Shown here in pieces: positions 3,506 through 29,459 of a stretch of 64,000 nucleotides of DNA. Position 1 is the stretch's first letter; every line of letters starts with the position of its first letter. Origin of the DNA: a virus (taxonomy: Duplodnaviria > Heunggongvirae > Uroviricota > Caudoviricetes); IMG/VR virus record IMGVR_UViG_3300017917_003521. One strand, given 5' to 3'. A model generated the notes under the pieces. The model saw only the letters and a list, made by a program, of their open reading frames with translations, was not told the origin of the DNA and did not search any database. The position numbers and the translations under genes were made by a program.

Positions 3506-5439
3506 AAAAAACATACATAACACACGTCACTAGAGACTATTTAGATGTAGCTATAAATTTAGCAAAGTCTATTGAGTTGTTTTCTAAAATACCTTTAGTT
3601 GTTTACTGCATCGGATTAGAAGATTCTGATAAGGAAAAGTTCAATATATTTAAAAATGTGGAGTTAAGAAATATAGAACTAGATATAAAATCAAATGATG
3701 ATGATTATGTTACTAATAGTTCTGGTAACTTCTACATAAATAGAAATAGTACTAGAATATATCAAATTTTATGTGCTAAGACAATAGCTATGGAAATGGC
3801 TTTAGAAGAAGGATTTGACGAGGTTTGCTATCTAGATTCTGATTGTTTAGCAACACCTTTTGTAGATGAACTTTTTGATTGGACTAATAATATATCTGAC
3901 TTTCCAATTGCAACTGAAGGTATACATGAGTATATGATTATAATTGAGAATGGAATTCAAAAAGGAAATCCATTCATTAATTGGCCCATAGCAGACAATA
4001 CATATAGCTTAGAATGGCCCTTAATGAATTTTATGCAAATGAAGCCAGAAGAAAGAGGTAGATACAGGACTACAGGTATAATGTTAATGAATCAAAATTG
4101 TTTACCTTTTATTAGAACTTGGAGAGAACTTTGCTTTTTATTACCAAAATTGGTTGATACTAGACATTATGCTCCGTACCATGAAGAGACTATATATAAT
4201 GTACTATCATGGAAGAAAGAAAATAAAGGTTTTCCTCTTTGTTATATAAATTTAGGAGAAGGATTAGAAACAGTTAAACATTTCTACTCAGATGAATCAG
4301 TAGAAGGTAATTTAAGGTGGTCGGATACAGATACATCTCAAAATTTTTATAAAATTCCTGACGATAAAAAATATGTAAAAGTTTTACACGGTGAAAAAAG
4401 AACATCAGAGGTTGAAAGTATTTTAGACTTCTTAAATAATAATAAAACAAAAAAAAATCCTAAAATTTTAATTCAAATTGACACTTTTGCAGATACACAA
4501 GATAAAATAGAAATAACAAAACTTTGTATTGAGTCTTTAAAGGATTTTGAATATCCTATTCTTTTAACATCACATATAGATGTGCCAGATGAAATTAAAG
4601 ATTTATGTGATTATAGTTATATTGATAATAATAATGTTCTACTACCACCAACAACTAATAAATCATTTCTTAGATTCTATTCAGATTTTTTATCATCAGA
4701 GATTATATTAAATAACTCAGATCCACATGCTCCGGCTTGTCTATCTAGTATCATAAATGGTGCTAGATTTGCAATAAATAATAATTTTGATTTCTTTATT
4801 AGATTTGAGTATGATGTTTTTATAAAAGAAGAATACAAAAACTATGTAAAAGACTTAATAAAATCATCATCAAAGATGGATGGATTGGTTTTTTATAATA
4901 ACAATTGGTTAGATGGTAAAATAATAATGATTAAACCAGAATTATACCTTAAAAAGTTTGATGTTGATATTAATAGTTCAGATGATTATTATAATTTACT
5001 ATCTAAAAATGGTGTACTTGATGATAATAGAAGACATTTACAAAATACACAATATAAAATATTAAATGATTCTGGATTACTAAATAATGTAAATAAAATA
5101 CCTACTAGAGATCTAGAAGATTTAATTGATAATAGATTATCTATAAAAGAGTCTGGTGTATTTAGACCGGTCTACATAGAAGGTGATGAATCTAGTTTTG
5201 CTAATATATGCCACGGTTGGATAGATGGTGATGTTAAGGTTGATATATATTTAGATAATGTTTTAATATACAATTATATTCAAAAGTATATTGCTAATTC
5301 TATAACATATAGAATATTTCAATTTGAAAATAAAAATTATAAAATAATATCAACAGATTTAAAAACAAATAAAGTTGAGATTTTTGAATTTTCAAACATT
5401 CAAGAATTAAAAAATTTAGGAAAATTAATATTAAATTAA
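3502..5439 (+). CDS. Multi-domain putative glycosyltransferase
   Basis: GT-A-like YLDSD (DxD), HEETIYN; second module ILLTSHIDV; position in glycan locus. Confidence 0.5.
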   Translation: MKKTYITHVTRDYLDVAINLAKSIELFSKIPLVVYCIGLEDSDKEKFNIFKNVELRNIELDIKSNDDDYVTNSSGNFYINRNSTRIYQILCAKTIAMEMALEEGFDEVCYLDSDCLATPFVDELFDWTNNISDFPIATEGIHEYMIIIENGIQKGNPFINWPIADNTYSLEWPLMNFMQMKPEERGRYRTTGIMLMNQNCLPFIRTWRELCFLLPKLVDTRHYAPYHEETIYNVLSWKKENKGFPLCYINLGEGLETVKHFYSDESVEGNLRWSDTDTSQNFYKIPDDKKYVKVLHGEKRTSEVESILDFLNNNKTKKNPKILIQIDTFADTQDKIEITKLCIESLKDFEYPILLTSHIDVPDEIKDLCDYSYIDNNNVLLPPTTNKSFLRFYSDFLSSEIILNNSDPHAPACLSSIINGARFAINNNFDFFIRFEYDVFIKEEYKNYVKDLIKSSSKMDGLVFYNNNWLDGKIIMIKPELYLKKFDVDINSSDDYYNLLSKNGVLDDNRRHLQNTQYKILNDSGLLNNVNKIPTRDLEDLIDNRLSIKESGVFRPVYIEGDESSFANICHGWIDGDVKVDIYLDNVLIYNYIQKYIANSITYRIFQFENKNYKIISTDLKTNKVEIFEFSNIQELKNLGKLILN

Positions 5440-6563: not shown

Positions 6564-6582
6564 AAACTTTTTTAATATATAC
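6564..6582 (+). promoter_or_regulatory. Putative phage promoter AAACTTTTT(T)AATATATAC upstream of tRNA-fMet
   Basis: Same motif recurs at about 7881, 15463 and 26085 ahead of tRNA arrays. Confidence 0.55.
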
Positions 6583-6599
6583 ACATACAATAAAAACAT

Positions 6600-6671
6600 T
6601 GCGGGGTAGAGCAGAGGTAGCTCGCAAGGCTCATAACCTTGAGGTCGCAGGTTCGATTCCTGCCCCCGCTA
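6600..6671 (+). tRNA. tRNA-fMet (CAT), initiator-like
   Basis: Cloverleaf with 1:72 mismatch, GCGGGG acceptor, CAAGG-CTCATAA-CCTTG. Confidence 0.85.
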
Positions 6672-6689
6672 CTAAAAAAATAAAAAAGA

Positions 6690-6857: not shown

Positions 6858-6893
6858 AACCCAGTCTGACTTATCAGACTGGGTTTTTTGTTT
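6858..6893 (+). terminator. Intrinsic terminator/attenuator before Glu/Tyr tRNA array
   Basis: AACCCAGTCTGA-CTTA-TCAGACTGGGTT plus U-tract. Confidence 0.85.
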
Positions 6894-6911
6894 TAAAGTT
6901 CTTTGAAATTT

Positions 6912-6998
6912 GGGAGTATAACGTCAGCGGCATGTTAGAGCCGCCCCTAAACAAATAGACGTATAGAGGTAACTTGTGTGCAAATCCAGGTGCTCCCA
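6912..6998 (+). ncRNA. tRNA-like RNA with aberrant D and anticodon arms
   Basis: Acceptor GGGAGTA/TGCTCCC and degenerate T arm (GTGCAAATC); no canonical anticodon loop. Confidence 0.5.
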
Positions 6999-7004
6999 CA
7001 AAAT

Positions 7005-7084: not shown

Positions 7085-7164
7085 GCTACGGTATGCAAAC
7101 CGGAATAAGCGACCAGACTTTCAATCTGGACATCGAAAGATGTGTGCGGGTTCCGTCCGTAGTA
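7085..7164 (+). tRNA. Atypical tRNA, TTC (Glu) anticodon with long variable arm and truncated T arm
   Basis: CCAGA-CTTTCAA-TCTGG; V arm CATC-GAAA-GATG; T arm reduced to GCGG-GTT-CCGT. Confidence 0.6.
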
Positions 7165-7171
7165 CAAAAAT

Positions 7172-7558: not shown

Positions 7559-7563
7559 CAAAT

Positions 7564-7678
7564 GACGCAAAAGGGTCAGGTGATGATATGATGGGTCTGC
7601 TCGAGATACTAGTTCAGCAGTTTAGTAAGACATCATATATGTAGCTTGGAGAGTTTGGTTCAATTCCGAACTGCGTCT
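7564..7678 (+). ncRNA. tRNA-like RNA with greatly extended central arm
   Basis: GACGCA/TGCGTC acceptor, GTTTGG-TTCAATT-CCGAAC T arm, long ATATGATG/CATCATAT helix in place of the anticodon arm. Confidence 0.55.
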
Positions 7679-7682
7679 CTAA

Positions 7683-7760
7683 AAAACAGATAACTCCGGT
7701 ATGGTCTCAATCATTACTCAGAACCGGACTTAGGAGAGTTACAAGTTGAGATTCTGTTTT
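7683..7760 (+). ncRNA. Unassigned structured RNA (possible pseudoknot)
   Basis: Nested AAAACAGA/TCTGTTTT, TAACTC/GAGTTA, CGGT/ACCG plus crossing TCTCAA/TTGAGA. Confidence 0.35.
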
Positions 7761-7766
7761 TTTTAT

Positions 7767-7849
7767 TGGTAGGTATGCAAGTGGTTAAAGCGATCGGTCT
7801 GTAAAACCGCCCTCTTCGGAGTTCGGGGGTTCAAATCCCTCCCTGCCAA
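7767..7849 (+). tRNA. tRNA-Tyr (GTA)
   Basis: TCGGT-CTGTAAA-ACCGC; long V arm. Confidence 0.85.
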
Positions 7850-7915
7850 CAAATAATAAAAAAAATTAAAAGGGAAGATAAAACTTTTTATATATACTTT
7901 AATATAATTAAAACG

Positions 7916-7996
7916 ATGAAAAATTTAACTAACATATCAACAGCAATAATCGAAGGCGGCGCGGGAGCGAATGTCACTGGCTGGTTTATGTTATAA
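7916..7996 (+). CDS. Leader peptide 2 MKNLTNISTAIIEGGAGANVTGWFML (putative Ile/Gly/Ala attenuator)
   Basis: 26-aa ORF after the promoter motif; ATA..GCA-ATA-ATC-GAA-GGC-GGC-GCG-GGA-GCG. Confidence 0.75.
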   Translation: MKNLTNISTAIIEGGAGANVTGWFML

Positions 7997-8020
7997 TCTT
8001 TCATCAAAAGAAGTAAACGG

Positions 8021-8053
8021 AACCCAGTCAGTGAAAATTGACTGGGTTTTTTT
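8021..8053 (+). terminator. Intrinsic terminator/attenuator before Ile/Gly/Ala tRNA array
   Basis: AACCCAGTCAGT-GAAA-ATTGACTGGGTT plus U-tract. Confidence 0.85.
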
Positions 8054-8057
8054 ATTT

Positions 8058-8138
8058 CGGCAGATACCGGTCCAATCTTATACATTGGATATCCGTAGTG
8101 GTAAGTTGAAAACGTGGGTTCGAATCCCACTCTGCCGA
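8058..8138 (+). tRNA. D-arm-less rearranged tRNA with TAT (Ile) anticodon loop
   Basis: CGGCAGA/TCTGCCG acceptor, CCAAT-CTTATAC-ATTGG right after a 7-nt connector, 25-nt variable region, canonical T arm. Confidence 0.6.
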
Positions 8139-8150
8139 CAAAAGATATAA

Positions 8151-8222
8151 GCGGGTATCGTATAAAGGCTATTACTCCAGCCTTCCAAGCTGGAGATGTC
8201 GGTTCGATTCCGACTACCCGCT
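8151..8222 (+). tRNA. tRNA-Gly (TCC)
   Basis: CCAGC-CTTCCAA-GCTGG, U73. Confidence 0.9.
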
Positions 8223-8266
8223 CAAATGAGAAAACATTAAAACCATCCCACCAGGATGTAAAACTC

Positions 8267-8340
8267 GGTCCTGTAGCTCAATTGGTCAGAGCAACTCGCT
8301 CATAACGAGAAGGTTGTCGGTTCAAGTCCGGCCAGGACCA
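8267..8340 (+). tRNA. tRNA CAT, probably Ile2 (lysidine/TilS substrate)
   Basis: ACTCG-CTCATAA-CGAGA; body resembles bacterial ileX-type tRNA; tilS nearby. Confidence 0.7.
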
Positions 8341-8345
8341 CAAAT

Positions 8346-8428
8346 GCGGGTGTCGTATAACGGTAGGTAATTCGACATTACACCTGGCTTCCAACCAGGA
8401 GACGAGGGTTCGACTCCCTTCACCCGCT
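8346..8428 (+). tRNA. tRNA-Gly (TCC) with enlarged D loop
   Basis: CCTGG-CTTCCAA-CCAGG; D loop TAACGGTAGGTAATTCGACAT. Confidence 0.85.
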
Positions 8429-8435
8429 CAACTAT

Positions 8436-8511
8436 GGGGATGCATGTACCAAGGCTTTGGCGAGTCTGCTTTGCAAGCAAACTGTGGTGGGTTCGATTCC
8501 CATCATCTCCA
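8436..8511 (+). tRNA. tRNA-Ala (TGC)
   Basis: TTTGCAA loop, G3-U70, A73. Confidence 0.8.
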
Positions 8512-8516
8512 CAAAA

Positions 8517-8689
8517 TGAGTATGACTATATTTAAATATTTAGTAGATGGTAAACTTTACTTCTTGTATAAAGGAGTTAAGGGTTATATTGCTATACCAT
8601 TTGAACATAGTGGTAGCACAATATCAAATCCCGACTTAAAAGAATTTGTACCAGTTGAATTTGGTAGTGGTTCTAATGGATTTGTATAA
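8517..8689 (+). CDS. Small hypothetical protein (MSMTIFKYL...)
   Basis: ATG just after tRNA-Ala; the track ORF start at 8444 lies inside the tRNA. Confidence 0.55.
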
Positions 8690-8822
8690 AAATAAAATTG
8701 AGTATGAAAAAGGTATTAACAGGCGAATTTGAATCAAGTAGAAAGAATTTAAGAAGAGATATAAATAAAAGTGTTTTGACTAAATTAATTAAAAGATTGA
8801 AAAGTAAGAGAAAATAAAATAA

Positions 8823-8897
8823 GCGAAAGTCGTATAGTGGCTATTATATCGCCTTGCCAAGGCGAGGACGGGAGTTCGATTCTCCTCTTTCGCTCCA
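8823..8897 (+). tRNA. tRNA-Gly (GCC), CCA encoded
   Basis: TCGCC-TTGCCAA-GGCGA; ends TCCA. Confidence 0.9.
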
Positions 8898-8938
8898 CCT
8901 GCCGGATGATCCACCGTTGTATCACGGTGCCGGCTCCA

Positions 8939-9012
8939 GGGGGATTAGCTCAGCTGGCTAGAGCGTCTGCCTTGCACGCAGAAGGTCAACGGTTCGACTC
9001 CGTTATCCTCCA
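8939..9012 (+). tRNA. tRNA-Ala (TGC)
   Basis: TCTGC-CTTGCAC-GCAGA, G3-U70. Confidence 0.92.
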
Positions 9013-9031
9013 CTAAAAAAATTAAATTGTT

Positions 9032-9525
9032 ATGAAAAATCAAAGAACTAACAGCTTGGACGCCTAACCAAGAATGAACGAATCGAATTAAGAAAAAAAG
9101 AAATAGGTTCAAAATTAGATAGAAAACTACAAAAGTATTCTAATAGTTTTAATGAAATATTTACTTTCTTTTTGAAATCTTATCGTTCGGGCATTCTTAC
9201 ATTCTGTGGTAGTTCAGTAGATATTGATTTTGATGTCTATGGTATAGAAGGAAAAATGACTTTTAGAAAATATGACAATGGTCAATATCAACAAGGTAAA
9301 CAAATTATAACAAGACATCCTAATATAGTAAAAGGAGTTATAACTGGTAAAAAAAGTTGGGGCTTGTGGGTTAATCAGTGGTCTGATGGTATAGTAGAAG
9401 GAACATTCTCAAAAAGAGAAATATTAGAACAATTTGAGAAATTAAATATTATAATACCAGAATCACTACTAAACGATTTTAATAATAGAATAATAAATAA
9501 AATGAAGAAAAAATATGGATGGTAA
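9032..9525 (+). CDS. Hypothetical protein, probably frameshifted near 9052-9067
   Basis: ATG at 9032 stops at 9067, but the -1 frame is open from 9052 to 9525. Confidence 0.45.
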
Positions 9526-9634: not shown

Positions 9635-10456
9635 ATGAAAACAAAAGACACCTTCGGGGATCGTATGAAAATGTACGAAAACCAAACCTGTGGAATTAGA
9701 TTAATTCCCAGAATTCCAGTAATTGCCCGTCTTGATGGTAAAGGATTCTCTAAATTTACTAAAGGTCTTAAAAGACCGTATGATGAAAGACTATCTAAAT
9801 TGATGATTGAAACTACTAAGTATTTAGTTAAAGAAACTAATGCAAACTGTGGCTATACTCAATCTGATGAAATCACTTTAATGTGGTACACTGATAAGAT
9901 CGATGCTTCAATTTATTTTGATGGTCGTTTATTTAAGATGCTTTCCGATCTTTCGGCTATGGCTTCTGTATTCTTTAATAGAAAACTTAGCGAATATCTT
10001 CCAGAAAAGGCTGATAAGATGCCTAGATTTGATGCTAGAGTTTACAACGTTCCAACTTTAGATGAGGCGATGAATTCATTCCTTTGGAGAGAACAAGATG
10101 CAACTAAGAACTCAATTACTATGGCGGCTTCTCATTATTACTCTCACAAAGAGTTACACGGAAAGAATGGAAATGAAAAACAAGAAATGCTTTTTCAAAA
10201 AGGTGTTAATTGGAATGATTACCCAACTTTCTTCAAGAGGGGTACTTATGTACAAAGAAAAAGAGTTTTAACTCCTTTCAGCGCTGAAGAGATTGAAAAA
10301 CTACCAATTAAACACAATGCTAGAAAAGATCCTAGTATGTTAATTGAAAGATGGGTTATTGATGTGGTTGAATTACCTAAACTATCAAGTATTGAAAATT
10401 CTGTTGAAGTTATTGTTTTTGGTGAAGAACCTAAATTAAAAAGTCCAGTTATTTAA
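9635..10456 (+). CDS. thg1: tRNA(His) guanylyltransferase / Thg1-like 3'-5' polymerase
   Basis: ARLDGKGFSKFTK, GYTQSDEI, FDARV, WREQDATKNSI motifs. Confidence 0.92.
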   Translation: MKTKDTFGDRMKMYENQTCGIRLIPRIPVIARLDGKGFSKFTKGLKRPYDERLSKLMIETTKYLVKETNANCGYTQSDEITLMWYTDKIDASIYFDGRLFKMLSDLSAMASVFFNRKLSEYLPEKADKMPRFDARVYNVPTLDEAMNSFLWREQDATKNSITMAASHYYSHKELHGKNGNEKQEMLFQKGVNWNDYPTFFKRGTYVQRKRVLTPFSAEEIEKLPIKHNARKDPSMLIERWVIDVVELPKLSSIENSVEVIVFGEEPKLKSPVI

Positions 10457-15338: not shown

Positions 15339-15484
15339 TAAAACAATTGAGAGAGGCAACGATTTAGATACAAATTTCAATTTTTTTTACAAATTTTAGA
15401 AAAAAATTAGGCAAACTTAAAACTTTTATCTATATTTGTATAAAATAAGTCAAAAGGAACAAAAACTTTTTAATATATACAACA

Positions 15485-18693: not shown

Positions 18694-20157
18694 ATGAAAA
18701 ATATAGTAACAAGAATTGCACCTTCTCCAACTGGACCGTTTGCACATATTGGTAATGTGAGAACTCTATTGTATAACTACTTTCTTGCTAAAAAGAATGG
18801 TGGTAAATTCTATGTTCGTTTGGAAGATACCGATCGTGATAGATATAATGCCTCGTTTTTAACATACTTTAAAGATATGTGTGATTGGCTTGGTATAGTA
18901 CCTGATGGTTCTTATTGGAACCCTGATCCATCTATTGGCTCATTCACTCAATCAACAAGAGATTATTCAGATAAGGTTAAATTCCTTTTAGATAAAGGTT
19001 TGGCTTACTATGCCTTTGATACTAAGGATGATTTAGACGCACTAAAGGCTAAAGGTCTAAAGTATGACTCAACAACTCGCATGTCTATGAATAACTCATT
19101 GACTAATCCATCCACTGATATTATGTTACAAAGTGGTGTTCCTTATGTAATTAGATTTGCTGTTCCAGCTGACTTAGATGTAACTTTCACTGATGCTATT
19201 TTAGGTGATATCACAATCAACACAAATACTTTAGATGATAAAGTTTTAATTAAGTCAAATGGAATTGGCTCATATCATCTTTGTAATGTTTGTGACGATC
19301 ATGATATGGGTGTTACTCACGTTCTTAGAGGTAACGAGTGGGTAAACTCTACTCCTTTCCACGTTATTCTTTATAAGGCTTTTGGTTGGGATGTTCCTAC
19401 ATTTGCTCACTTACCTTTAATTATGAATCCAGATGGTAAAGGTAAGTTGTCTAAGAGAACTGCTATGAAGTATGGTATTCCTATCGCACCACTTGGTTAC
19501 ACAGATGATAATGGTGTTTATACACCAGGTTGGAAAGACTTAGGATATGATCCTAAAGCATTTATGAACTATCTTGCTTTAATTGGTTGGAATCCAGGAG
19601 CTGAAGTAGAAATTATGTCTATGGATGATATGATTAATTTATTCTCTTTAGATAGAGTTCACAAGTCTGGTGCTCGTTTCGATATGGATAAAGCTAAGTG
19701 GATGAACTCTCAATATCTTAAATTAACAGATAACAAAGACTTGATGCCTTATGTTGATGTAGTTGACGATAGATATTCTGATGATAAATTAGACATGATT
19801 GTCTCTTTGGCTAAAGATAGATCTGACTTTAAAACTGACTTGAATAAAATTGTTAAATTATTCTTTGATGTCCCTTCTATCGATGATAGAAGTAAATTAG
19901 ATGATAACTATACAAAAGTTATGTCAGACTTTATCAACAAAATTGATACAATTAACTTTGATGATACAAACTCAATCAAAGACACTATCTCATCAATCTG
20001 TAATGATTTAGGTGTTAAGATGGGTAAAGTAATGCCTGGTTTAAGAATGGCTTTGGTATCCGGGATTGCTGGACCAGACTTAATGACAACAATGTCAATT
20101 CTAGGTAAAGACCAAACAAAATTGAGAATTAATAACTCAATTACGGTAATGGCTTAA
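18694..20157 (+). CDS. gltX: Glutamyl-tRNA synthetase
   Basis: RIAPSPTG, HIGN, RLEDTD, VLRGNEW, KLSKR, anticodon-binding tail. Confidence 0.95.
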   Translation: MKNIVTRIAPSPTGPFAHIGNVRTLLYNYFLAKKNGGKFYVRLEDTDRDRYNASFLTYFKDMCDWLGIVPDGSYWNPDPSIGSFTQSTRDYSDKVKFLLDKGLAYYAFDTKDDLDALKAKGLKYDSTTRMSMNNSLTNPSTDIMLQSGVPYVIRFAVPADLDVTFTDAILGDITINTNTLDDKVLIKSNGIGSYHLCNVCDDHDMGVTHVLRGNEWVNSTPFHVILYKAFGWDVPTFAHLPLIMNPDGKGKLSKRTAMKYGIPIAPLGYTDDNGVYTPGWKDLGYDPKAFMNYLALIGWNPGAEVEIMSMDDMINLFSLDRVHKSGARFDMDKAKWMNSQYLKLTDNKDLMPYVDVVDDRYSDDKLDMIVSLAKDRSDFKTDLNKIVKLFFDVPSIDDRSKLDDNYTKVMSDFINKIDTINFDDTNSIKDTISSICNDLGVKMGKVMPGLRMALVSGIAGPDLMTTMSILGKDQTKLRINNSITVMA

Positions 20158-26028: not shown

Positions 26029-26102
26029 TTTGACAAATTAAAACTTTGTTGTATATTTGTATAAAATAAGAACAAAAGGAACAAAAACTTTTTAATATAT
26101 AC
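26029..26102 (+). promoter_or_regulatory. Promoter cassette (host-type TTTG-N19-TATATTTG plus phage motif), duplicate of 15430-15480
   Basis: 30-nt identity CAAAAGGAACAAAAACTTTTTAATATATAC at 15451-15480 and 26073-26102. Confidence 0.7.
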
Positions 26103-26952: not shown

Positions 26953-27534
26953 ATGAACTTGAAAGAGGAAATTAAAAATTGTTATAGTGTATCAGATTTT
27001 TGTAGATTATTAAATTTATCACAAGGTGGTGGTGGATTTTCTAAAGCGAAAAAAATAATACAAGATAACAATCTGGATATATCACATTTTGATAAGGGTT
27101 ACTTGAAAAGACAAAAGAATCCTAAAATTGAAAAGGTTTGTCCAGTTTGTGATAAGAAATTTGAAACGGTTACTTGGAGCAATAGAAAAGAAAAAGTTAC
27201 TTGTTCTAAGTCGTGTGCTAACTCTTACTTTAGAAGTGGTGTTGATAACCCAAACTGGAAAGAAGAATCATACAGAACTACTTGTTTTTATTATCACAAA
27301 AAAGAATGTATAATATGTGGTGAGGAAAAAATTGTAGAGGTTCATCATATGGATGAAAATCATATGAATAATAAACCCGAAAATTTAGTACCTTTGTGTC
27401 CTACTCATCATCAATATTGGCACTCAAGATATAAAGAGGAAATAGAAGATAAAATATATAACTACATAAAAGAATTTAAAATGAGAACAACAACACAATA
27501 CCAGCAACAACAACAAATTAATCCAACGGATTGA
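26953..27534 (+). mobile_element. Free-standing HNH homing endonuclease; last 17 codons are the Gln leader peptide
   Basis: CPVC...CSKSC, CIICG..VEVHHMDENHMNNKPENLVPLCPTHH. Confidence 0.85.
27481..27534 (+). CDS. Leader peptide 5 MRTTTQYQQQQQINPTD (putative Gln attenuator)
   Basis: In-frame ATG after an A-rich stretch; CAA-TAC-CAG-CAA-CAA-CAA-CAA. Confidence 0.8.
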   Translation: MRTTTQYQQQQQINPTD

Positions 27535-27854: not shown

Positions 27855-29459
27855 ATGAATTTCATTGAAGAAAAAATATTAGATAAAGGTAATCTTGATA
27901 AATTAACTTTAAGATTCCCACCAGAGCCAAATGGTTATTTACATATTGGTCACGCTAAATCCATTATCTTAAATTTTGGATTGGCTGAAAAATATAATAG
28001 ACCTTGTAACTTGAGATTTGATGATACAAATCCAACTACTGAAGATACACATTTTGTTGAATCTATAATAAAAGATATAGAATGGTTAGGCTACAAGCCT
28101 GCTAATATTTTCTATACATCTGATTACTTTGAATTTATTTACAAATGTGCTGTTACTTTAATTAAGAAAGGTCTAGCTTATGTTGATGATTCAACATCTG
28201 AAGAAATTGCTAACTTAAAAGGAACACCCACAGTTGCTGGTAAAGATTCACCATACAAGTCAAGAACTATTGAAGAAAACTTAGATCTATTTAATAGAAT
28301 GAGATTAGGTGAATTTGTTGAAGGTTCTAAAATTCTTAGAGCTAACATTGATATGGCTTCTCCTAATATGATTTTAAGAGATCCTGTTATTTATAGAATA
28401 ATATCTAAGTCACATCATAGAACTGGTGATACTTGGAAGATTTATCCAATGTATGATTTTGCTCATCCTTTAAGTGATTATAACGAAGGTATTACTGATT
28501 CTTTATGTACTTTAGAATTTGAAGTTCATAGACCTTTATATATGTGGGTCTTAGAAAATTGTGATTTAGAAAATCCTTTACCAGAAGAAACTGAGTTTGC
28601 TCGTTTGAACATTGACTATACAGTTATGTCAAAGAGAAAGTTAAAGAGATTAGTTGAAGAATCTTATGTTGATGGTTGGGATGATCCAAGAATGCCTACT
28701 ATCTCTGGATTAAGAAGAAGAGGTTATACACCAAGTGCTATTAAAGATTTTTGTGATAGAATTTCTGTTACTAGAAAAGATGGTGTTGTTTCTTATTCTT
28801 TACTTGAAGAATGTCTAAGAACCGAATTGAATAAGACTGCTCCAAGATTAATGGGTGTCATGGATCCTGTTAAGTTAGTTGTTACTAATTTTGAAGGTGA
28901 AGGATATTGTGAAATTGACAATAATCCAGAAGATGAAAATGCTGGTAAAAGAAAAGTTTCTTATTGTAATGAATTTTGGATTGAAAAAGAAGATTTCAGA
29001 GAAGAAGCCAATAACAAATATCACAGATTAAAGTTAGGTGGTGAAGTTAGATTAAAAGGATTGTTTATAGTTAAAGCCAATGAAATAATTAAAGATGAAA
29101 ACGGTGAAATTATAGAAATCAGATGTACTTATGACCACGATGCTTGGATTGGTGTTACTGAAAAGAGGGTTAAAGGTACTATTCACTGGGTTTCTGTTAA
29201 CCACGGAGTTAAGATGAAAGTAAACGATTATGATAGATTATTTATCAATAGTTCACCAGACAAAGGAGATGAAGATTTTACAACTCATGTCAATCCTAAC
29301 TCATTAGTTATTAATGATAATGCTATCTTTGAGGAAAATGTAAAAGATTGTAAAGTAGGTGTGCCTGTTCAAATGATGAGAAAAGGTTACTATGTTTTAG
29401 ATAAAGATGGTAAGTCTTGGAACAGAACTGTAAGTTTGAAAGAAGGATGGGTAGGTTAA
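27855..29459 (+). CDS. glnS: Glutaminyl-tRNA synthetase
   Basis: RFPPEPNGYLHIGHAKS, RFDDTNP, IYPMYDFAH, CTLEF, MSKRKL, KGTIHWVS. Confidence 0.96.
   Translation: MNFIEEKILDKGNLDKLTLRFPPEPNGYLHIGHAKSIILNFGLAEKYNRPCNLRFDDTNPTTEDTHFVESIIKDIEWLGYKPANIFYTSDYFEFIYKCAVTLIKKGLAYVDDSTSEEIANLKGTPTVAGKDSPYKSRTIEENLDLFNRMRLGEFVEGSKILRANIDMASPNMILRDPVIYRIISKSHHRTGDTWKIYPMYDFAHPLSDYNEGITDSLCTLEFEVHRPLYMWVLENCDLENPLPEETEFARLNIDYTVMSKRKLKRLVEESYVDGWDDPRMPTISGLRRRGYTPSAIKDFCDRISVTRKDGVVSYSLLEECLRTELNKTAPRLMGVMDPVKLVVTNFEGEGYCEIDNNPEDENAGKRKVSYCNEFWIEKEDFREEANNKYHRLKLGGEVRLKGLFIVKANEIIKDENGEIIEIRCTYDHDAWIGVTEKRVKGTIHWVSVNHGVKMKVNDYDRLFINSSPDKGDEDFTTHVNPNSLVINDNAIFEENVKDCKVGVPVQMMRKGYYVLDKDGKSWNRTVSLKEGWVG

Follow-up and report, generated by a model that had tools for sequence, protein, structure and literature searches.

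We analysed a 64,000-nucleotide stretch of DNA from a huge uncultured phage (IMG/VR record IMGVR_UViG_3300017917_003521, Caudoviricetes; hereafter the window, to whose positions coordinates refer unless stated otherwise) and found that one of its transfer RNA (tRNA) clusters, cluster D, is preceded by a short leader open reading frame (ORF) and an intrinsic terminator, laid out in the manner of a ribosome-mediated transcription attenuator. We consider it very probable that this leader-peptide attenuator gates the phage tRNA cluster and gives feedback on tRNA supply. The phage would then probably make its Ile, Gly and Ala tRNAs only when ribosomes read the codons for those amino acids slowly. 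Leader-peptide attenuation is itself a known mechanism, and what would be new here is that tRNA genes are its targets; to our knowledge, the way in which phages regulate their own tRNA genes is essentially unknown.

The leader ORF, MKNLTNISTAIIEGGAGANVTGWFML, lies at 7916-7996 on the + strand and comprises 26 codons, beginning with the ATG at 7916, followed by TAA at 7994-7996. Its codons 10-18 (7943-7969, + strand), GCA ATA ATC GAA GGC GGC GCG GGA GCG, encode A-I-I-E-G-G-A-G-A and make up the sensing run, in which Ala, Ile and Gly account for eight of nine residues, compared with 17.4% of residues in the long ORFs of the window. Cluster D consists of seven tRNA genes, namely UAU, Gly-UCC (two copies), CAU (Ile2-like), Ala-UGC (two copies) and Gly-GCC. 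A first-pass annotation of the sequence, whose codons, letters and coordinates were all present as it gave them, had matched the leader codons to these tRNAs. The tRNA inventory was as it listed, and seven of the nine run codons can be read by tRNAs encoded downstream, the match failing at ATC and GAA. The leader is also rich in rare codons. In 36 long ORFs, GGC accounts for 6% of the codons for Gly and GCG for 3% of those for Ala, and rare codons as a group contribute 7 of 25 leader codons (28%) against a background of 4.2% (P = 6e-5); for all five leaders of the window taken together the figure is 20%, against 4.2% in genes (P = 5e-11).

After a gap of 22 nucleotides, the leader ORF is followed by the intrinsic terminator (8019-8057, + strand; regions 3 and 4), which has a 14-bp stem at 8019-8050 and a T-run extending to 8057. 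The terminator hairpin alone has a folding energy of -20.0 kcal/mol and the whole leader one of -43.2 kcal/mol (z -5.85). Region 2, the putative antiterminator strand CACTGGCTGGT (7975-7985, + strand), pairs with the terminator 5' arm at 8022-8033. Pairing between positions 7976-7984 and the terminator arm had been proposed in the first-pass annotation, and both complementary 9-mers were found in place, ACTGGCTGG (7976-7984) and CCAGTCAGT (8024-8032) forming nine pairs, one of them G-U. As predicted by RNAduplex, the antiterminator helix reaches 12 pairs and -14.8 kcal/mol (z -2.5 relative to shuffled leaders), with a core in which TGGCTG(G) pairs with (C)CAGTCA of the terminator 5' arm. Across eight distinct leaders of this class (class D: the window, the related phages G001, G003, W01 and W02, and three further IMG/VR contigs), 88.9% of antiterminator cells are paired, compared with 16-37% when the partner strand is slid. 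Two of the pairs have changed on both sides (G-C to C-G and U-A to A-U), and one further pair has changed from G-U to A-U.

Region 1 (7930-7944, + strand) is the predicted partner of region 2 and contributes TAACATA (7930-7936) and CAGC (7941-7944). In the minimum free energy fold of the full leader these pair with TATGTTA (7987-7993) and GCTG (7980-7983), respectively, and this 1:2 pairing would, as modelled, keep the antiterminator strand occupied in the absence of a stalled ribosome. The 1:2 helices are paired in 89-90% of cells over five homologues, where they are invariant and without covariation, and in a truncated-RNA model the free leader of the window still prefers the 2:3 pairing over 1:2. 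We replaced an equilibrium model of ribosome position with a co-transcriptional one, which considers the RNA present before the terminator 3' arm is made. In the co-transcriptional model the 5' arm of the terminator is about 80% sequestered while the ribosomal A site is on codons 1-16, and 10-30% sequestered from codon 17 to the stop. A step of this kind, at the end of the run or shortly after it, was seen in most of the 38 units of this build described below, and it implies that a ribosome stalled in the run permits antitermination and a finished ribosome does not.

The first tRNA gene of cluster D starts at 8058, directly after the T-run, with no room for a promoter between the two; in relatives, the first tRNA lies 11-15 nucleotides past the terminator stem. 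Because the first tRNA abuts the terminator, the cluster can be transcribed only by polymerases that pass the terminator. There is no terminator between the preceding cluster C and leader D, and therefore read-through of unit C would also be gated at D, the attenuators acting in series. All structural elements of the leader-peptide attenuator that the first-pass annotation had called here are present and correctly placed in silico, the 1:2 pairing as a prediction, and the analysis supports that interpretation.

From the parts shown above, the way in which they are arranged and conserved, and the correspondence of leader to cluster, we infer that the leader is translated, that the choice between folds is a kinetic one and that the response has the following direction. 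Transcription would start upstream of 7916, the leader would be translated at once, and the outcome would be set by the speed at which the run at 7943-7969 is decoded. When aminoacyl-tRNAs for AUA (Ile), GGC and GGA (Gly) and GCA and GCG (Ala) are plentiful, the ribosome would reach the stop at 7994 and there cover the antiterminator strand at 7975-7985, with the result that the hairpin at 8019-8050 forms and RNA polymerase stops at the T-run. When one of these tRNAs is scarce, the ribosome would stall in the run and mask region 1, so that the strand at 7975-7985 would stay unoccupied and could pair with the newly made 5' arm of the terminator. With the terminator blocked in this way, polymerase would read on into seven tRNA genes for the same codons. 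Such a circuit would amount to direct negative feedback on tRNA supply.

A pattern search of viral contigs for class-D leaders returned 55 loci, of which, besides two already known, only four were real homologues (three distinct sequences). All eight leaders in the resulting set keep the N-terminal MKNLxNIS, an Ile/Ala/Gly/Val stretch and an invariant GGC GCG GGR, and Ile(UAU), Gly and Ala tRNAs lie downstream of every one of them. Loss of the Gly/Ala run with retention of the corresponding tRNAs, which the first-pass annotation had named as the outcome that would count against its proposal, did not occur: the seven homologous leaders keep the Ile/Gly/Ala core. In the nearest relative the run reads AIIGGGAGA, with GGA at the position where the window has GAA, so the GAA of the window is a recent GGA-to-GAA change. 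In G002, the Tyr, Glu, Gly and Ala tRNAs stand in one merged cluster behind a single merged leader (..IGAYEAGYAYEG.. / ..VIGAYEAGYAYEG..), which indicates that the leader tracks its cluster. A 1-nucleotide indel after GGCGCGGG places the window and G001 in a different 3' frame from the other six class-D leaders, giving peptide tails in two frames, ..ANVTGWFML and ..SDCHWLSYVL. Despite this indel the leader frame is open in all eight sequences, the ORF end shifts by no more than a few bases, and the TGGCTG and TATG nucleotides stay aligned. A shifted 3' frame with conserved nucleotides means that RNA, rather than peptide, is selected in the 3' third, and the pattern as a whole argues for selection on translation that reaches the 3' third and on an RNA element located there.

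Unit D is one of a larger family of such units. We scanned the window and the tRNA regions of five related phages (G001, G002, G003, W01 and W02) with one script, and counted five units of this ORF-terminator-tRNA build in the window and 38, falling into seven classes, over the window and the relatives together. In all 38 the leader ORF ends 17-35 nucleotides before the terminator. The run HKHFSK..KWF of class A precedes Phe, His, Trp and Lys tRNAs; SKSSSSRSS of class B precedes Ser and Arg(ACG); YYYEGE of class C, Glu and Tyr; AIIxGGAGA of class D, Ile(UAU)/CAU, Gly and Ala; NLNMNLNLTVVNTLCIR of class E, Asn, Ile(GAU), Leu, Val, Thr, Met and Arg(UCU); NPQPQ..DQDP of class F, Asp and Pro; and QYQQQQQ of class G, Gln. 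Scored by matched residues, the true pairing of leaders with clusters is the unique best of all permutations in every genome (1/120 for the window, 1/5040 for each of three genomes and 1/720 for each of two). The genomes are related and do not count as independent samples; the weight of the test lies with the seven paralogous classes inside a single genome. The true pairing is again the unique best when wobble rules are used to match codons with anticodons. The match extends to codon families that are split between clusters. The Arg family is divided between CGC in class B, with Arg(ACG), and AGA in class E, with Arg(UCU), and among Ile codons ATA dominates the class D leaders, which stand before UAU/CAU tRNAs, and ATT the class E leaders. 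Leaders also fit their own terminator arm better than arms that belong to another class within one genome (4, 33 and 15 of 5040 permutations), a comparison that is informative only across classes and for classes A, B and E, leader/arm cross-pairing within a class being weak (26/120 in class D, and likewise in C, F and G).

The design is also found in Caulobacter phage phiCbK (JX100813, ~51.3-51.5 kb), in which an annotated rho-independent terminator lies behind the frame MSKTYRQFVRQIQVVRNIRAGRSRMADEGFRD (MSKTYRQFVRQIQVV...), with Phe, Val, Ile, Ile, Val, Gln and Gln tRNAs after it. This frame has 32 codons, is rich in Phe, Val, Ile and Gln, and is not annotated as a gene in JX100813. Judged by its sequence, the unit follows the logic of cluster D in a phage that is unrelated, G+C-rich and cultured. 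A second phiCbK candidate, gp083 before a Pro/Lys/Leu/Ser block, gave only a partial match and is also Ala/Thr-rich, and was not counted. In Serratia phage BF, where the tRNAs are scattered among protein genes, we found none of these units, so not every tRNA-rich phage has the design.

Several observations weigh against an attenuator at cluster D that responds to tRNA supply. The ATC and GAA codons of the run are unserved by the cluster (the ATC reader, Ile-GAU, belongs to another cluster), as are the Val codons in the runs of relatives. Three tRNAs of the seven have atypical structures and might be non-functional. The first-pass annotation had argued, from the way in which GGC and GCG stand out in an AT-rich genome, that these codons are selected. 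Their rarity stands, but G+C-rich rare codons could have been favoured by RNA stem formation instead of codon sensing, and this could explain part of it. The antiterminator is weak in three relatives (-9.2 to -9.6 kcal/mol), 16 of 500 shuffles match its covariation score, which makes that support modest, and the full structure, compared in five sequences, shows no covariation and almost no variation. Equilibrium folds with a masked ribosome footprint favoured the terminator at every ribosome position. Since the terminator wins at equilibrium, the switch would have to be kinetic, as in classical attenuators; in the classical trp attenuator, too, equilibrium favours the terminator. Finally, the phage is uncultured and its host is Bacteroidota-like only by inference from promoter motifs.

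These points leave room for other explanations of the same parts. Translation of the leader might matter while the output is something other than tRNA-limited read-through, such as a positive check, in which read-through occurs only if the phage tRNAs work, or an effect on the processing or stability of the tRNA precursor. The codon match links leader decoding to the cluster without giving the direction of the response, and the equilibrium folds do not discriminate direction either. The geometry, however, does bear on direction: the run lies upstream of the antiterminator strand, and a stalled ribosome leaves the strand free, whereas one that has passed covers it, an arrangement in which stalling leads to read-through, as it does in trp and his. 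The combination of a strong terminator and a specific antiterminator, moreover, points to control of transcription, and we regard such other outputs as improbable.

A simpler possibility is that the terminator is leaky, or ends an upstream transcript, and that the short ORF is untranslated, its codon content being due to coincidence or shared ancestry. Short ORFs are fairly frequent in AT-rich DNA, one of such a size ending at such a distance from a given point being found at 6.2% of random positions, and the five to eight class-D sequences compared are related to one another. Coincidence or ancestry would nevertheless have to produce a unique optimum among the 5040 permutations of seven leaders and seven clusters in three genomes, the merged leader at the merged cluster of G002, a frame that is open after the frame shift, the constant ORF-terminator spacing in 38/38 units and the same design in unrelated phiCbK; we think this very unlikely. 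Least likely of all, in our view, is that the ORF is a functional micro-protein gene which the terminator merely ends. The N-terminal MKNLxNIS is conserved, as such a gene would have it, but the conserved AACATA pairs with TATGTT in the predicted fold, so its conservation is explained at the RNA level. The C-terminal third, for its part, is in two frames among close relatives while its nucleotides are conserved, and there is no promoter room between the terminator and the tRNAs. The attenuator that responds to slow decoding of its run is thus the reading we prefer.

Multivalent leader-peptide attenuators are known from the enterobacterial amino-acid operons ilvGMEDA (Ile/Leu/Val) and thr (Thr/Ile), beside trpL, hisL, leuL and pheL. 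Unit D has in common with the ilv/thr type a short leader whose regulatory codons specify two or more amino acids, antiterminator and terminator hairpins that exclude each other, with a co-transcriptional decision between them, and a stop codon at a position where a ribosome that completes the leader covers the antiterminator. It differs in what it gates. Behind its terminator are seven tRNAs and two small ORFs, not genes for amino-acid biosynthesis, transport or aminoacyl-tRNA synthetases, so that unit D gates the tRNAs that read the run and its loop would close on tRNA supply. The phage attenuators differ further in forming a phage-borne set of seven which divides the amino acids, and in bearing no likeness to Rfam leader families. 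The pheST attenuator of E. coli (leader pheM) controls a synthetase and senses one amino acid. It resembles unit D as a case of leader-peptide attenuation acting on a component of the translation apparatus; the products of unit D, by contrast, are tRNAs, and its leader would sense three amino acids. T-boxes bind uncharged tRNA directly, need no ribosome and control synthetase or amino-acid genes, and are like unit D in that transcription attenuation reads the state of a specific tRNA through its anticodon. At the gathering score, the only Rfam matches in the whole window were to tRNAs, and a search of 7840-8150 gave no leader family (His_leader, Leu_leader, Thr_leader, Trp_leader or others) and no T-box up to E = 5. 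With no match to a T-box or any other cis-regulatory Rfam family in the scan of the window or of 7840-8150, we rejected a T-box at this site.

Phage tRNA arrays are regarded either as a supplement to the host's tRNAs or as a counter-defence against host systems that deplete tRNA. Such accounts treat which tRNAs are carried, not how they are switched on. The large tRNA sets of huge phages, like that of the window, stand beside tRNA synthetases and tRNA repair genes (in the window GluRS, GlnRS and a Thg1-like gene). The tRNA and synthetase repertoires of huge phages have been described (PMC7162821), in a text from which the strings 'attenuat', 'leader' and 'terminator' are absent. Full-text literature searches likewise found no description of leader-peptide attenuation as a control for tRNA genes.

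Another way to view the seven attenuators is as a codon-resolved sensor network for tRNA supply, in which a block would come on solely in response to slow reading of its own codons, for example when anticodon nucleases cleave host tRNAs or when these run low in the course of infection. On this wider proposal, which holds further that the design has arisen more than once in tRNA-rich phages, since it occurs both in huge Bacteroidota-type phages and in phiCbK, and forms a general layer of phage control over host translation, we find our judgement evenly balanced. If it is true, this layer is one so far undescribed. If the attenuator at cluster D is what we propose, the significance is that a textbook leader-peptide mechanism acts on tRNAs themselves, with feedback on decoding capacity for each codon family, and the grouping of tRNA genes by amino acid in these phages would be explained. 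A leader can also predict the identity of unusual tRNAs, as with the CAU tRNA of cluster D as an AUA reader, and the idea provides a testable link between phage tRNA arrays and tRNA-depleting host systems. Practical use could be made of such leaders as compact parts that report the supply of a chosen tRNA, and a direct test of the idea is possible in the cultured pair of phiCbK and Caulobacter.

The seven genes of cluster D, all on the + strand, vary in how closely they conform to the tRNA fold. The first, an atypical UAU tRNA (8058-8138) and AUA reader, matches the full Rfam tRNA model at 39.6 bits and has the anticodon loop CUUAUAC. Its D arm is almost deleted, and its variable region carries a 22-nucleotide insert with the D-loop-like TAGTGGTAA. 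In the relatives G003, W01 and W02 a canonical tRNA-Ile(UAU) occupies the same place. A canonical tRNA-Gly(UCC) follows at 8151-8223. The CAU tRNA at 8267-8341, labelled Met by ARAGORN, matched 16 E. coli genomes at no more than 77% identity over its full length, and all of these matches are annotated tRNA-Ile. By this comparison it is probably tRNA-Ile2, which would read AUA after lysidine modification. A second, atypical tRNA-Gly(UCC) at 8346-8429 has a partial Rfam match (8366-8420), the anticodon loop CUUCCAA and approximately 13 extra bases between acceptor stem and D arm, and receives a different call from ARAGORN at a relaxed threshold. The tRNA-Ala(UGC) at 8436-8512, called by ARAGORN at the relaxed threshold, is also atypical, with a G3:U70 pair and an odd D region. 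The last two genes, tRNA-Gly(GCC) at 8823-8897 and tRNA-Ala(UGC) at 8939-9013, are canonical. Two small ORFs, at 8516-8689 (57 aa) and 8704-8817 (37 aa), both + strand, lie between tRNA genes of the cluster, and the cluster of the closest relative, G001, lacks the corresponding gap. A PHROG search with these two ORFs and with ORF 9172-9525 gave no match. Irregular tRNA-like stretches also fill gaps in cluster C, at 6890-7000, 7085-7165 and 7560-7760.

The window as a whole is AT-rich (G+C ~29%). Its tRNA genes, of which there are at least 37, fall into five clusters and all lie on the + strand. The public sequences most closely related to it come from huge uncultured phages, namely LR745206.1 (635 kb), LR756502.1 (642 kb) and IMG/VR contigs of 476, 385 and 190 kb. 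Just past cluster D, at 9635-10456, is the Thg1-like gene (tRNA-His guanylyltransferase family; Pfam 4.5e-29, PHROG 8e-83). A search for loci by this neighbouring protein led mostly, among the more distant loci, to ones without tRNAs nearby. The GluRS gene (18694-20157) follows cluster E and the GlnRS gene (27855-29459) cluster G.

A promoter-like motif, AAAACTTTTTATATATAC (7880-7897, + strand), lies 18 nucleotides upstream of the leader ATG, and shows no variation in its core columns across five class-D homologues. Matches to its family, CTTTTTAATATATAC, number nine in the window against 1.47 expected, and sit 4-18 nucleotides ahead of leader ATGs, which suggests that some of the leaders may be nearly leaderless mRNAs. 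Also enriched is TAnnTTTGTA (24 matches, with 9.9 expected), which we take to be the Bacteroidota -7 promoter element. Such promoter-like motifs occur throughout the window, for example at 6568-6582, 15466-15480 and 26088-26102.

Some further observations concern other tRNA units. In the Gln tRNA unit, the poly-Gln leader (..MRTTTQYQQQQQINPTD*) continues the frame of an HNH-type endonuclease ORF (26953-27534); this leader stands alone in G001, G003, W01 and W02. An initiator-like tRNA (6600-6672; CAU, C1-U72 mismatch) stands directly behind a promoter motif without leader or terminator, as expected, since elongating ribosomes cannot sense initiator tRNA. In LR745206.1, a leader-like ORF, MKTMTINNRNRLTDII (4376-4479 of the fetched locus), with a terminator, follows tRNA-Arg(CCU) and has no tRNA in the ~1 kb covered downstream, and may be an orphan or a gate for something else. 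Lastly, ARAGORN calls a tRNA with the amber-reading anticodon CUA in G002 (~1413 of its fetched locus) and in G003 (~1633), and these tRNAs may indicate TAG recoding.

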